From assembly GCA_043814985.1 (NCBI GenBank), contig JBDRJK010000019.1:56561-120560 (forward strand): a stretch of DNA of 64,000 nucleotides, given 5' to 3'. The stretch is from Candidatus Aenigmatarchaeota archaeon. Its GTDB lineage: Archaea; Aenigmatarchaeota; Aenigmatarchaeia; Aenigmatarchaeales; Aenigmatarchaeaceae. How positions within the stretch are numbered: the first letter of the stretch is position 1; the number at the start of each line of letters is the position of its first letter. Shown piece after piece: positions 58,246 to 63,981 of the stretch. A model generated the notes under the pieces. The model was not told the origin of the DNA, made no database searches, and saw nothing but the letters and a program-made list of their open reading frames with translations. A program made the position numbers and the translations under genes.

Positions 58246-61200
58246 TCACCTTATGACAGACTGTATGATGTACTTTAAGTCCAAAGTACCCCAGTCTGAT
58301 TTTGCCGGGTCTATCTTGTCCTCGCCGGCCGTGAACTGAATTATAATATTTCTGTTGTCTATGACATTGTAATTGTAATCAACCTTTAAATCCTGAAGTG
58401 CGTTCATAAGTCTTCTTTCCAGATAACCGCTGTGCCTTGTTCTCAGTGATGTATCCATAAGTGATTCTCTTCCTGACACAGCACCGAAGAAGAACTCAAA
58501 AGGATTCAGACCTGTCTTGAAGCTGTGTGATGAGAAACCATGTGCTTCTGGTGAGAGATCTCCTACCTTGAAGTGTGAAAGCGTTCTGTTCCTGTAACCC
58601 CTATGAATCCTCTCTCCCAAAACTCTTGCCTGCCCAGTGAATGCTGACAGCTGTGTAAGGTGGGTCATTGAACCCCTTGCCCCTGACTTTATCATTGCTA
58701 TCAGGCAACTGTCTTGTGCTGAACCCTTTATCAGTTTTTCCACTTCCTGTGTTGATAATGACAACGCCTTTAGTATGTGGCTTTCCAGGCTTGCCTTTGC
58801 AGTGCTGCCTGCAAGAATCTCTATCTTGCCTTCATTGTACATTTTAATCAATTCATCAACACTGCTTTTAGACTTCTTAATTATCTTGCCCACGTCATCT
58901 ATTATTCCGCTTTCCAAATCAACGTCACTGATGCCTATGGTGAAGCCGTTCTTGTCCAGGAATTTTATGCTTAGTGATGATACCCTATCTATGAACTTGT
59001 GGGCAACATCTGTGCCGAACTCCTTCTCTATGACATCAATCAGTTTTCCATGCTCAGAACTAATAGCTTTTGAGTCTATAACTCCTCTTTTTAATTCGCC
59101 GTTCTTGATAACAACATAACCATCATTCGGGCAGGTTCCCTTGACACACTTGTCGCAACCACATGCCTTTGCTTTGAATTCTACATAAAGACCCTTGGGA
59201 AGCAGAAAACTGAAAATTTCCTTTCCAGTAAACTTATTTTTCTTGGGCAAGTCTATTATCAATCCTATGTCAGACAACAGCTTGAAGGTTTCTTCCCTTG
59301 TCATTTCAACGCCCTTCTTGGTTAACAAATAGCAGCCTGTTATCAAGCCTTCCTTGCATCCAATTATGGGACCGCCGAACCTCGGAGACCTTATGTGATT
59401 CTGCACTTCCATCAGCATCCTTGCCTCTGTTTGGGCTTCTTCTGTCTGCGGCACGTGCAGGTTCATCTCGTCGCCGTCAAAGTCTGCGTTGTAAGGAGGA
59501 CATGTGCAGATGTTCAAGGTAAATGTTCTCCACGGAGTTACCCTGACTCTGTGTGCCATTATGGACATCCTGTGCAAGGACGGTTGCCTGTTGAATAGGA
59601 CAACATCATTGTTCTGCAGATGCCTTTCAACAACATAGCCGGGAGAAATCTCCTCGACAATTTCATCTTTGGTTTCTTCGCTGACCTTCTTCTTCTTACC
59701 GTCCGCTCTTATTACATAGTTGGCAGATGGCCACGAAGGATATCTATCTACCAGTTTTTTAATTTCCTTGACATTGCTTTCAGTGACAGTGACAGGTATT
59801 GTCAGTTCCTTTGCTATGACCATTGGAACGCCAACCTCGTTAATGCTCAGACATGGGTCAGGTGATATCACAGTTCTTGCTGAGAAGTTGACTCTCTTAC
59901 CTGTGAGGTTCTGCCTGAACCTTCCCTCTTTTGATTTCAGTCTGTTGGAAAGGGTTTTCAGCGGCCTTCCAGACCTGTGCCTTGCAGCGGGTATTCCTGA
60001 CAAAGTATTGTCCATGAATGTTGCAACATGATACTGTAACAGTTCCCATAAATCAGCTATTATGAAATCAGGTGCTCCTATCTCGATGTTCTCCTTAAGC
60101 CTTCTGTTTATTCTTATTATGTCAACAAGTTTGTGTGTTAAATCGTCCTCGCTTCTCTCTCCTGATTCTAGAGTTATTGAGGGTCTCATTGTGACAGGCG
60201 ATACGGGCAACAGCGTTATCAGGAACCATTCGGGTCTGCCTCCCCTTATGCCTATTATTTCCAGATCCTCGTCAGGTATCTTCTCGAGCCTCTCCCTGAC
60301 TTCCAATAGAGTCATTATTCTCTCGCCCTCGTAGAATGTATACGGCTTCTCAAACTTGATCTTCTCTAATTCCTCTGCACAGTGTGGGCATTTTTTGGGT
60401 GTTGAGGTTGTTGATGCTGACACGATTCTGCCGCATGACCTGCATGCTACTTTCAGTATCTTGTAAATCAGCTTGGAATACAAAACATTAACAACAGGCT
60501 TTGTCAGTTCAATGTAGCCAAAGTGGCCGAAGTCGGATCCCATGCCCTTTCCGCAGGTCCTGCATTTCAAACCAGGGTCTATAACTCCCAGTCTCGGATC
60601 CATGACACCTCCCTCCAATGGGAAGCCGTCATTGTCATAAAGTTCAGGCCTTGCTATTTCCCCTACTGCCATTTTCTTTACCATCTGCGGCGATAGAAGC
60701 TTGAACTCAATTGCATCTACCAGTTTTCCCTTTAGGTATAATTTCGGATAAATCAACATGCTCTTTAGCTCGTCCAACAAAAGCTTGAAAGCATAGGACA
60801 TCTCCACTTCAGAGACATCGGTACCATCGCAGACAGGGCAGATGTTCTTTTCTTGGAGTTTGTTCCATGCAGCAACAAGGCCGCACTTCTTGCATATTGG
60901 GACATCAACCTTGTCAGAGCTGAACCTTTCCTTTAAAGTTAAAACAGCACCATGCGCAATCAGGCAATCCTTTTCCATTTCTCCCAATCTCAGTCCTCCC
61001 TCCTTTGCCTTTCCTTCTGTTGGCTGCCTTGTCAACAGTGTTACAGGACCTCTTGACCTTGCCTGTATCTTGTTCGCGACCATGTGGTCAAGCTTCTGCC
61101 AATATACCAAGCCAGTGAATATTTCAACATCAAACTTTTCACCTGTTATGCCATTGTAAAGGACTTCCTTTCCGTCAGACCTGAAGCCCAGCTCATTTAG

Positions 61201-63981
61201 AGTCTTCCTTATTACTTCTTCATTATCGCCTGTGAATGCAGTTGCGTTCACACTCTTTCCGTTTAACGCAGAATTTTTTCCAGACAATATTTCCAGAAGC
61301 TGTCCTATTGTCTGCCTTGATGGGATGGAATGTGGGTTTAGTATTATGTCAGGTGTCATTCCCGATGATGTGAATGGCATGTTCTCTTGCGGTTGTATCA
61401 GACCCAAAACAGATTTTTGGCCGTGCCTTGAAGAGAACTTGTCCCCAAGTTCTGGGACTCTCAGATCCCTTACTGATACCTTGACATACTTGTTTCCGTT
61501 TGGTGTTTCCGTTAGGATTATTCTGTCAACTACTCCCTTCTCACCATGCCTCATTGTTATTGAGCTCTCCCTCATGTTTGCAATTCCTGTCATGAGTTCG
61601 TTTGCTGACAAAAATCTTAAAGGAGACGTCCTTCCAACTAAAACATCATCGCTTTTAACAGCAGTTTCAGGCGGTAAAATACCGTCTTCTGCCAGTCTTG
61701 AATACTCGTCCTCGTTCCTATATCCTCTGACATCCTTGTCAGGAATTCCGATTTCATCCTCCTGCCCTCCCCAGTACCTTTTTTCCACAGCAGGATAGAC
61801 TCTGTAGAACATTGATCTGAACATGCCCCTTTCTATTGAGGCTTTGTTAATAATAGCGCCGTCAAGAAGGTTGTAACCCTTATGGGAGGCAATTGCAATA
61901 ACAACATTCTGTCCTGAAGGATGGTGGTTCAATCCAATGGTGTCAATTGTGTCAGTCTTTACCAAAGGAGTTTGAGAATATATCAAGACATTAGACTTTG
62001 TGTCGCTTCTTAGGAAGAAGTTTGTCTGGTAAAGGCTTATTGCCTGGTTGATCATCTTTGCTCCGATGCATACCCTGTCTCCCCTGTTGTGCTCTGGGAA
62101 CGGAATCAGGCTAGCGGGGATTCCTAGAAGTCCTATTATTGTCATTTCCATATGCGTGTGAGCTGACGTTATCCTCTTCTCATTAAGAGCAACCAAGACA
62201 TCGTCCTCCTCAGTTGCATCCAGGTATTCTATGCATCCTAGCTTAGTCAAATCCTGCCAGAAGATTTCTCCCTTGGTAAGCTTGTTCAGAATTTCTTCTG
62301 TTAGTTTTGGCCTGCTGTCCTCCAGAATTACCAGGGGCCTTCTAACTCTTCCTGCGTCCGTGTTTATTCTTACCTCCTTCAGGATGGGATATAAAACAAA
62401 ATTTACTTCTCCTGATATCTTGCCCTTCCTTCTCTTCTCTCTCAAATCATTAATTAGTTTTTTAGGATCAGATGTATAGCCTATTGGAATACCGTCCAAG
62501 TAAACATCAATGCCTTCATTGTCAAGCTTTATGGCTGCCATCAGCCTTTTTTTCTCGCTTTCTGAAAGGCCCTTTGTTATTTCTGCGAAAAGGGACAAGT
62601 GCTTTCTCAGACCAATTGTAGGACCTTCTGGTGTTTCTGACGGGCAGAACCTGTACCAGTGAGTGGGGTGCAGTTCCCTTGCTGCAAAATGTTCTTGGGT
62701 TGATGTCAATGGTGATAGAACTAATCTTAAATGGGATAATGTGTCAACGTAATTTTTCCTTTCCAATCTTTGCGAAACTCCTGTCCTTCCTCCTATCCAT
62801 GCTCCTGTTGCCATTGCAGACGCCAACTGATTTGTAACAACATTGGACTCGACAATGGTTTGGACTGGAGGAAGCTTTCCCCTCTTGGCCATTTTCTGGT
62901 AGTTGTATTTTATTCTTGCTATCAATCCCCATCTTCCAACAAGAATTGACCTGAACAGCAACTCTAACAAATCACCGGATAACTTGATTCTCTTGTTGCC
63001 GTAATGGTCCAAGTCGTCCTTTGGTATTATTTCCAAGGAGAACTCTATTATCTTTTTCACAGCCTTCAGGATGTAGTTGGCCTTTTTCATCTTGTCCTTG
63101 GGATCCTGACCCAAGTGCGGCAGTAGGTACTTGTTGATTATCTGCTCAACCCTCTGCTTTCTGTACTCCTTCTGCATTATCTTCAGATGCTTTCCAACAA
63201 ACTCCAAGGCATCTCCTTTTGTCTGGACCTCTGTCTCGTAAAGGTTTGTATAGAATTCACTTATTATCTTTTCATCCTCCAGACCTTCTACTATGTCCTT
63301 GTCCTTTTCCAGGCCAAGTAGTTTTAACAAAACAACTATTGGCAGCCTGCGTATGTTAGCAAATGAAATGCAAATAGAACCGTCGTTCTTCCTTTCTAAA
63401 GTATGTCTTTGAATAAAACCGTTCCTCTCAGAATTTATCCTTATCAGTTCAGTATAGTTCCCTACATGCTGCTCCTCAACTATCATCCTGTTAGGTGCTA
63501 TTTCCTCTATTAGAACTAAAACCCTCTCAGTGCCGTTTATTATAAAGTATCCGCCGGGGTCGTCTGGATCTTCACCGGCTTCTTCCAGCTCTTCCCTTGA
63601 CATCTTGCTCAAGGGACATAATTTTGACTTGACCATGATGGGCATCTCAGCGAGCAACACGCTCACAGGTTCCTGCTCAACCTTGTTGACAATAGGTGTT
63701 GCCTCAAGATAGACAGGAGCAGTGTACGAGAAGTCCCTTAGTCTGGCTTCAATTGGTAGTATTTCCCTTATGCCGCCTTCAGCTTCTTTAACACAGGGTT
63801 TGCCAATTGTTATCTTGCCGAATTTTATCACAAGCTCTCCTATCTCTGGAACCTCGGGCTTGATTTCCTCTATCTGGTCTATTATTCCCTGCAGCCTGTT
63901 GTCAACAAACTCATTATAACTATTAATCTGGAATCTGACAAAGCCAATGTCGTTTTTAAAGGATTTTAAAATTTCATTCAT
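58246..63981 (-). CDS. rpoB-rpoA1: Single 1911-codon ORF: RNA polymerase subunit B (Rpo2, residues about 1-1087) fused in-frame to subunit A' (Rpo1N, about 1088-1911)
   Basis: The RpoB C-terminal zinc ribbon and tail ([39 protein letters not shown]) runs without stop or start codon into the RpoA' N-terminus ([26 protein letters not shown]...CRTCG). Junction near 60720; verified by hand reverse-complementing 60661-60840. Confidence 0.75.

Follow-up and report, generated by a model that had tools for sequence, protein, structure and literature searches.

Are subunits B (Rpo2) and A′ (Rpo1N) of RNA polymerase made as one protein in some archaea and, if so, how did two genes become one? The question is raised by a stretch of 64,000 nucleotides from Candidatus Aenigmatarchaeota archaeon (assembly GCA_043814985.1, contig JBDRJK010000019.1, positions 56,561 to 120,560), hereafter the window, in which an earlier sequence-only reading had described rpoB and rpoA′ as a single continuous frame. 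The list of open reading frames (ORFs) and the translation both agree with this description and put the frame on the minus strand, which that reading had not named (Table 1). Here, we conclude that the frame is very probably a genuine, inherited in-frame fusion of rpoB with rpoA′, one that would have arisen through loss of the rpoB stop codon and would be tolerated inside the clamp of the enzyme.

Subunits B and A′ in one reading frame

By curated models, the window ORF is a member both of archaeal subunit B and of archaeal subunit A′. All seven Rpb2 domains of Pfam (1-7) are present, at residues 14-1083. Rpb1 domains 1-4 come immediately after them, and then an initial portion of domain 5, which reaches to residue 1889. 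On the B side, the NCBIfam model of full-length RpoB, NF006335, covers residues 2-1086 at profile positions 14-1114 of 1116, and the models of its two regions exceed their cut-offs (TIGR03670 for the B′ region, 844.7 vs 811 bits; NF007175 for the B″ region, 533 vs 355). The RpoB part is unsplit, with the B″ and B′ portions both present, and its C-terminus consists of a zinc ribbon followed by the strand '…IYPKLYLKG'. On the A′ side, the NCBIfam match extends from about residue 1090 to 1910, with both A′ models above cut-off (NF006336, 1140 vs 819 bits; TIGR02390, 1124 vs 1042.55). This part opens with the conserved strand, aligns with solved archaeal Rpo1N chains from their residue 3-6 onward, and contains the catalytic NADFDGDE motif in its translation. 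The RpoB and RpoA′ profiles, by which the sequence-only reading had proposed to place the boundary, do place it, with RpoB at residues 2-1086 and RpoA′ from about residue 1090; the calculated mass of the fused polypeptide, 215.1 kDa, likewise bears out the earlier estimate of about 215 kDa. What the locus lacks is an rpoB stop and an rpoA′ start, and it does not form a separate-gene rpoH-rpoB-rpoA′-rpoA″ operon. A pseudogene was ruled out by the intact domains, the catalytic and zinc motifs, and conservation at 74-90% identity. The A′ part, at about 825 amino acids, falls some 50 residues short of the 883 positions in the NCBIfam A′ profile and is matched in two stretches; a deletion in the N-terminal region of the clamp is suggested, as it is for relatives (825 amino acids in the unfused locus L001).

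Is the window an exception among its relatives? The sequence-only reading had proposed this comparison, and the window turns out to have much company. In a search over 5.8 billion proteins (clusters from ENA, JGI, NCBI and Logan), we found 22 full-length fused clusters (1909-1916 amino acids) at 74-90% identity and another 7 fused clusters (1911-1932 amino acids) at 53-55% identity. A search of proteins clustered at 50%, in which the fused forms collapse to very few representatives, was of little use for counts. At the level of the DNA, we assembled the 80 most similar loci, one genome per GTDB species and mostly labelled Aenigmatarchaeota, and called each fused or separate by walking from the tblastn-anchored RpoB C-terminus to the next stop codon. 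By this measure, 46 of the 80 loci carry an in-frame fusion and 34 have separate genes. The fused loci are of two kinds: 13 join B to A′, and 33 join B′ to A′ in genomes where rpoB is split, giving the order B″ / B′–A′ / A″. At the position of the former stop, the codon varies among species and is always a sense codon. Every unfused locus has a stop and an ATG in the same frame, and in 8 of these 34 species the ATG follows the stop immediately. The overlapping stop and start that had been held to be usual in archaea is found in none of these retrieved relatives, a sample biased toward same-frame arrangements.

The unfused relatives also allow the join to be followed codon by codon. Their RpoB ends '…IYPKLNVSG', the final glycine aligning with G1085 of the window, and their separate RpoA′ starts 'MI(K/E)SIEF…'. 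In unfused L011 the junction reads '…AGT GGT TAA ATG ATA GAA TCA ATT GAT TTT', and in the window it reads '…AAG GGA AAA CTG GTA GAT GCA ATT GAG TTC', colinear with L011 codon for codon. The AAA of K1086 (60724-60726) takes the place of the relatives' stop and the CTG of L1087 (60721-60723) that of their ATG. Among the fused members of the window's own clade (clade I, below), the first of these positions holds AAA, AGA, AGG or AGT; the second keeps ATG in fused L009 and L010 and elsewhere is CTG, CTA, TTA, TTG or AAA. A second fused group, clade IV, is colinear with its unfused relatives too ('LNLGE TAA ATG ATA GAA AAA' in L048 vs 'LNVVA ACA AAA CCT GCG AAG' in L049).

Because the join is colinear with unfused sister genomes, stop-codon substitution explains the fusion and no indel is needed. 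An indel was dropped as the relevant mutation in favour of this substitution. That one indel could not restore two canonical genes, as had been argued, is true but beside the point, since base substitutions at two adjacent codons would restore them. The earlier description of the junction itself stands in part: codons 1077-1099 contain no stop and no ATG, GTG or TTG, the first in-frame ATGs past the join being codons 1100 and 1104, but the statement that there is no recognisable linker needs refining, as K1086 and L1087 form a minimal one.

Origins of the fused state among relatives

If fusion recurs in so many species, it may have arisen once or several times. We built a neighbour-joining tree of 76 taxa (100 bootstraps) on an alignment of the B′ and A′ regions with 1387 columns. 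In this tree the window groups with L002-L010, all of them B–A′ fusions of about 1911 amino acids, in clade I (bootstrap 89). This clade is sister to unfused L001 (bootstrap 97) and lies within an otherwise unfused group (bootstrap 100). Its members share one layout at the join, '…G' followed by one residue, the former start residue and 'I/V-x-S/A-I/V-x-F', and both by this layout and by monophyly the window belongs to the clade I B–A′ fusion. Clade II (L065, L068, L069 and L075; bootstrap 100) is likewise B–A′, with unfused L070 nested in it (bootstrap 93). Clade III comprises 32 species (bootstrap 100), of which 31 are fused, as B′–A′ proteins of about 1430 amino acids with rpoB split; unfused L031 is nested deep within it, and L059, which was too short for the tree, has the junction of L031 with a TGA stop. 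Clade IV, finally, consists of L049 and L054, both B′–A′ (bootstrap 100), and is sister to three unfused species. Linkers differ from clade to clade.

Because well-supported unfused lineages stand between the fused clades, and because the linkers differ, several gains are needed. A single origin was ruled out on these grounds, and we conclude that the fusion was gained several times, in at least four Aenigmatarchaeota clades. The archaeal B–A′ fusion that had been proposed from the window is thus real, but it is not a lone oddity: it is a trait of whole clades, with several origins. The separate-gene lineages nested in fused clades, L031, L059 and L070, are apparent reversions, and the number of returns to separate genes is probably one or two. 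In all three, rpoB ends with TGA, and the layout in L031 and L059, 'GAG GTA TGA AAG ATG', is one codon longer than in their fused neighbours.

Two features of these loci may be recorded here. The order B″ / B′–A′ / A″ occurs in L020 and 32 other loci of clades III and IV (e.g. L021-L064, L049, L054); in L020, the genes lie at 1003-2517 (B″), 2511-6784 (B′–A′) and 6750-7877 (A″), and in loci of this pattern the B″ stop overlaps the B′–A′ start (ATGGTTGA). In L001, the closest unfused relative, a 171-nucleotide insertion (9257-9430) separates the rpoB stop from the rpoA′ start, and the 57-amino-acid ORF in this spacer has no Pfam match.

Fusions also occur outside Aenigmatarchaeota. A Desulfurococcaceae lineage carries a B–A′ fusion of 2045-2057 amino acids (L085 4001-10138, metagenome-assembled genome GCA_038897455.1; proteins P0271 and P0056), in the order rpoH, B–A′, A″, L30e and NusA, and an identical protein is found on 11 contigs. 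The fused protein P0056 is 2050 amino acids long and 42% identical to that of the window, and the Desulfurococcaceae linker is longer ('…RLVIRDIRIGDTPLANQIVGIKF…'). We regard this fusion in Thermoproteota as an independent event.

Three further proteins depart from the common pattern. P0170 (L082 4732-11376; Logan SRR24908257, 18.7 kb) is one ORF of 2214 codons, apparently coding for all three of RpoB, RpoA′ and RpoA″: NCBIfam models place B at 4-1068, A′ from 1185 and A″ at 1872-2209. Its context is archaeal (S19e, S12, S7, EF-2, FEN1, GatA/B) and it is very divergent, at 34% identity to the junction region of the window; a search with P0170 turned up no close relative in the protein collection, and it stands as a singleton. 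P0195 (1665 amino acids, 13 contigs; L083 and L084 6001-10998) fuses an RPB2-like protein to the N-terminal half of an RPB1/A′-like one, the A′ portion covering just profile positions 5-442. Its contigs carry DOT1, GIY-YIG and DnaJ genes with many ORFs that match no family, and look viral, possibly from a giant virus, rather than archaeal. P0033 (2681 amino acids, Logan) is a fused B–A′ protein with an intein (PF14890 in the precomputed domains).

A probable tether inside the clamp, and competing accounts

Where in the enzyme would the join lie? We modelled residues 1020-1400 with AlphaFold2, using 30 fused homologues as input. The modelled clamp (mean predicted local distance difference test score, pLDDT, 70.8; predicted template modelling score 0.74) comprises the C-terminal zinc ribbon of B, a β-hairpin over the join and the A′ clamp core. 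In the model, the predicted hairpin runs from a strand at model residues 58-65 (…IYPKLYLK) through a two-residue turn, G-K, to a strand at 68-76 (LVDAIEFKL), and this block has a pLDDT of 84-87. Confidence is low at model residues 94-133 and 332-381, which in the whole enzyme would touch its other regions. The PDB entry whose fold matches best is 3qqc_A (TM-score 0.74, root-mean-square deviation 3.5 Å, 49% identity), an engineered Pyrococcus furiosus clamp in which B 1053-1115, A′ 3-318 and A″ 334-371 are connected by short linkers (PMC3094117). Its junction, 'KLNLSegGKVIGSIEF', aligns with that of the window, and Martinez-Rucobo et al. (2011, PMC3094117) obtained a correctly folded construct that bound Spt4/5. 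In archaeal RNA polymerase, moreover, the Rpo2 C-terminal zinc finger and Zn1 of Rpo1N are close in space (PMC8131849). Because both ends belong to one rigid clamp module, a tether of two residues should leave assembly, clamp opening and catalysis unimpeded. The architecture is unusual, as had been claimed, but less exotic than it was rated, for these clamp-neighbour ends had already been joined artificially in 3QQC with the fold kept.

These observations are consistent with a simple course of events. In the ancestor, the rpoB stop would have stood directly before the rpoA′ ATG and in frame with it, as in living L011 ('GGT TAA ATG'). A base substitution would have turned this stop into a sense codon (AAA here; AGA, AGG and AGT in relatives), TAA to AAA being one step, and the needless ATG would then have drifted to CTG, TTG, TTA, CTA or AAA. 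We infer this origin from the aligned codons; where stop and ATG share a frame, fusion by point mutation is easy. Translation would yield one 215-kDa chain made up of all of B and, from the largest subunit, the N-terminal two thirds; this single chain is probably made, left uncleaved and used as an active subunit, for which the conserved sequence, the structure model and the precedent of 3QQC give indirect support. Within the clamp, the last β-strand of B and the first of A′ would run next to each other and move together as a rigid unit, linked by the two-residue turn G1085-K1086 without disturbance to assembly, clamp movement or catalysis. The enzyme would otherwise work as a normal archaeal RNA polymerase, to which A″ and the small subunits are added separately, and the tether would enforce a 1:1 stoichiometry and make assembly one step shorter.

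Several points weigh against this account. The loci were ranked by tblastn matches to a query spanning the junction, which favours same-frame arrangements, and all of the genomes involved are metagenome-assembled. The tree is a distance tree built on the polymerase itself, which leaves the exact number of gains and losses uncertain. The match to the full-length RpoB model NF006335, at 1373.6 bits, is slightly below the curated cut-off of 1402, and the in-frame ATGs at codons 1100 and 1104 could in principle permit internal initiation.

Might the tether itself have been selected? Selection in DPANN archaea, which are genome-reduced and possibly symbiotic, for better assembly or stoichiometry of the polymerase or for a more stable clamp would fit the independent gains in at least four Aenigmatarchaeota clades and the persistence of the fusion through deep diversification (31 of the 32 clade III species), and bacterial β–β′ tethers, artificial and natural, are functional. 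However, clade III has the separate-gene lineages L031 and L059 nested within it and clade II has L070, many close relatives thrive unfused, and a Desulfurococcaceae lineage, which is not genome-reduced DPANN, is fused as well. Furthermore, an arrangement of stop then ATG makes gains mutationally cheap, and their recurrence needs no selection. We therefore consider an adaptive tether unlikely. A more far-reaching version, in which selection has favoured the tether again and again in Aenigmatarchaeota, and in at least one lineage of Desulfurococcaceae, because it alters core assembly or the behaviour of the clamp, and in which it belongs to a trend towards single-chain cores, strikes us as quite unlikely; were it true, the B″ / B′–A′ / A″ order and the B–A′–A″ protein P0170 would mark such a trend in fast-evolving archaea.

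A different objection is that the genes are fused while two proteins are still made, through internal initiation near the junction or proteolysis of the linker, which would leave the mature enzyme with B and A′ as ordinary, separate subunits. In-frame ATGs do occur 14 and 18 codons past the join (1100 and 1104), and the ATG of the old start is kept in some fused relatives, for example L009, L010, P0004 and P0007-P0010. Against this, the old start is CTG, CTA, TTA or AAA in the window and most clade I members, and a serine codon in P0011 and P0017, with the TTG of L007 as a possible exception; because non-start codons stand there in most of the clade, the old start is not under selection. A start at M1100 would delete the conserved first β-strand, 'IxSIEFxLLSP', that pairs with the last strand of B, and by eye we saw no Shine-Dalgarno-like sequence upstream of codon 1100. 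Proteolysis would have to act on a linker that, in the model, is predicted to form the two-residue turn of a hairpin and to be buried rather than exposed as a loop. We judge the production of two proteins to be very unlikely.

That a real stop or frameshift was miscalled in this metagenome-assembled genome is hardly credible, for although the window comes from a metagenome assembly, the same join is present in 46 species-level genomes from different studies and assemblers at 74-93% identity, with different sense codons at the former stop and with agreement among ENA, JGI, NCBI and Logan clusters.

Under the reading that we prefer, an inherited fusion by loss of the stop codon that is tolerated in the clamp, the repeated gains and apparent reversions suggest that the fused state is near-neutral and not a new function.

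Setting, annotation and relation to known polymerases

Apart from the fusion, the locus is conventional. The separate rpoA″ starts 4 nucleotides past the stop of the fused ORF, and the gene order is otherwise canonical; the position of rpoH would be past the end of the window. Unfused L001 shares the flanking genes of the window, namely those for A″, L30e, NusA, an M50 peptidase and LysRS.

Table 1. Positions in the window of the fused ORF, its parts and the genes beside it
Feature	Position	Strand	Basis or remarks
Fused rpoB–rpoA′ (Rpo2–Rpo1N) ORF	58246..63981	minus	1911 codons + stop, ATG start
RpoB (Rpo2) part, residues 1-1085	60727..63981	minus	NCBIfam and alignment to unfused RpoB
RpoA′ (Rpo1N) part, residues 1088-1911 + stop	58246..60720	minus	NCBIfam
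Junction codons AAA (K1086) and CTG (L1087)	60721..60726	minus	codon alignment with L011
Clamp module across the junction, residues 1020-1400	59782..60924	minus	AlphaFold2 model and PDB fold match
rpoA″ (Rpo1C), separate, 382 amino acids	57093..58241	minus	Pfam Rpb1_5; TIGR02389, 427 bits vs 420.65
L30e/L7Ae-family ribosomal protein, 88 amino acids	56849..57115	minus	PF01248, E = 1.2e-16
Archaeal NusA-like KH protein, 132 amino acids	56454..56852	minus	TIGR01952, 102.6 bits vs cut-off 74.35

An identical copy of the window protein is in GenBank as MFH1474043.1 (metagenome-assembled genome of Candidatus Aenigmatarchaeota, 152,925-bp contig). That entry is named just 'subunit A′' by NCBI, close homologues are named just 'subunit B' by JGI, and the fusion is flagged in neither; for members of the cluster, JGI calls the start 17 codons further upstream (1928 amino acids). 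Pipelines that keep the best hit per protein would count the other essential subunit as missing, with biased completeness estimates and inferences of gene loss as the result. Fused proteins had to be split for this best-hit reason in one study (PMC13473441).

Neither a B–A′ or B′–A′ fusion in archaea nor the B″ / B′–A′ / A″ boundary pattern is described in the literature that we searched, which included few subscription journals, so that absence from it does not prove novelty; the related cases that came up were the A′/A″ re-fusion of Pacearchaeota and the bacterial fusions. The fusion is unrecorded there, though the sequences are public. It represents a new natural architecture of archaeal RNA polymerase, in which two different catalytic subunits are covalently joined. 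With B split in many relatives, gene boundaries no longer match the textbook boundaries of subunits. The boundary is evolutionarily labile, and the fused state is a tempting but homoplastic marker inside Aenigmatarchaeota.

How does this architecture compare with known systems? The bacterial β–β′ (rpoB–rpoC) fusions are similar in that the second-largest subunit precedes the largest in one chain, C-terminus linked to N-terminus, the genes being adjacent and in the same order and the tethered ends neighbours in the enzyme. The window protein also passes a test of β/β′ architecture alone, with Rpb2_1 to Rpb2_7 followed by Rpb1_1 to Rpb1_5, the A′ portion only. However, it fails the two NCBIfam families of 'subunit beta/beta′' fusions, which we take to be those of Helicobacter and Wolbachia (NF007172, 398.8 bits vs a cut-off of 5372; NF011417, 390.8 vs 4632). 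Membership in the bacterial RpoBC fusion families was ruled out by these scores, and the likeness is one of architecture, not of lineage. Unlike the bacterial fusions, the archaeal one is an independent event that takes in A′ alone and leaves A″ separate, and many relatives fuse B′ alone. A synthetic tether of Escherichia coli β to β′, reportedly made by Severinov and colleagues in 1997, resembles the window fusion and shows that a covalent linkage is compatible with an active polymerase; it differs in that it is bacterial, was constructed in the laboratory and has a linker made by design. One preprint mentions rpoB-rpoC fusions that occur in nature as well as a synthetic fusion that is functional (bioRxiv 10.1101/2021.11.05.467461). 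The archaeal junction, unlike that of bacterial β–β′, links two zinc-bearing elements of the clamp, and the C-terminal zinc finger of Rpo2 is missing from bacterial enzymes (PMC8131849).

Within archaea, subunit boundaries are known to vary, through the B″/B′ split, which the models NF007175 and TIGR03670 recognise, the A′/A″ split and the secondary re-fusion of A′ with A″ in Pacearchaeota (Da Cunha et al. 2017, PMC5484517). The fusion in the window is like these in that boundaries move without loss of function and in that a rare genomic change is used as a phylogenetic character. It is unlike them in that they concern pieces of one subunit, whereas here two different subunits are joined.

The nearest structural counterpart is the recombinant clamp of 3QQC, in which B is joined to A′ at the same point; that construct is an artificial, 436-residue fragment to which a piece of A″ is also attached, and not a full-length natural enzyme. 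By analogy with the bacterial fusions and this engineered clamp, the archaeal fusion would be mechanistically unsurprising. It offers, beside 3QQC, a natural template on which to base recombinant single-chain cores or clamps of the archaeal polymerase.

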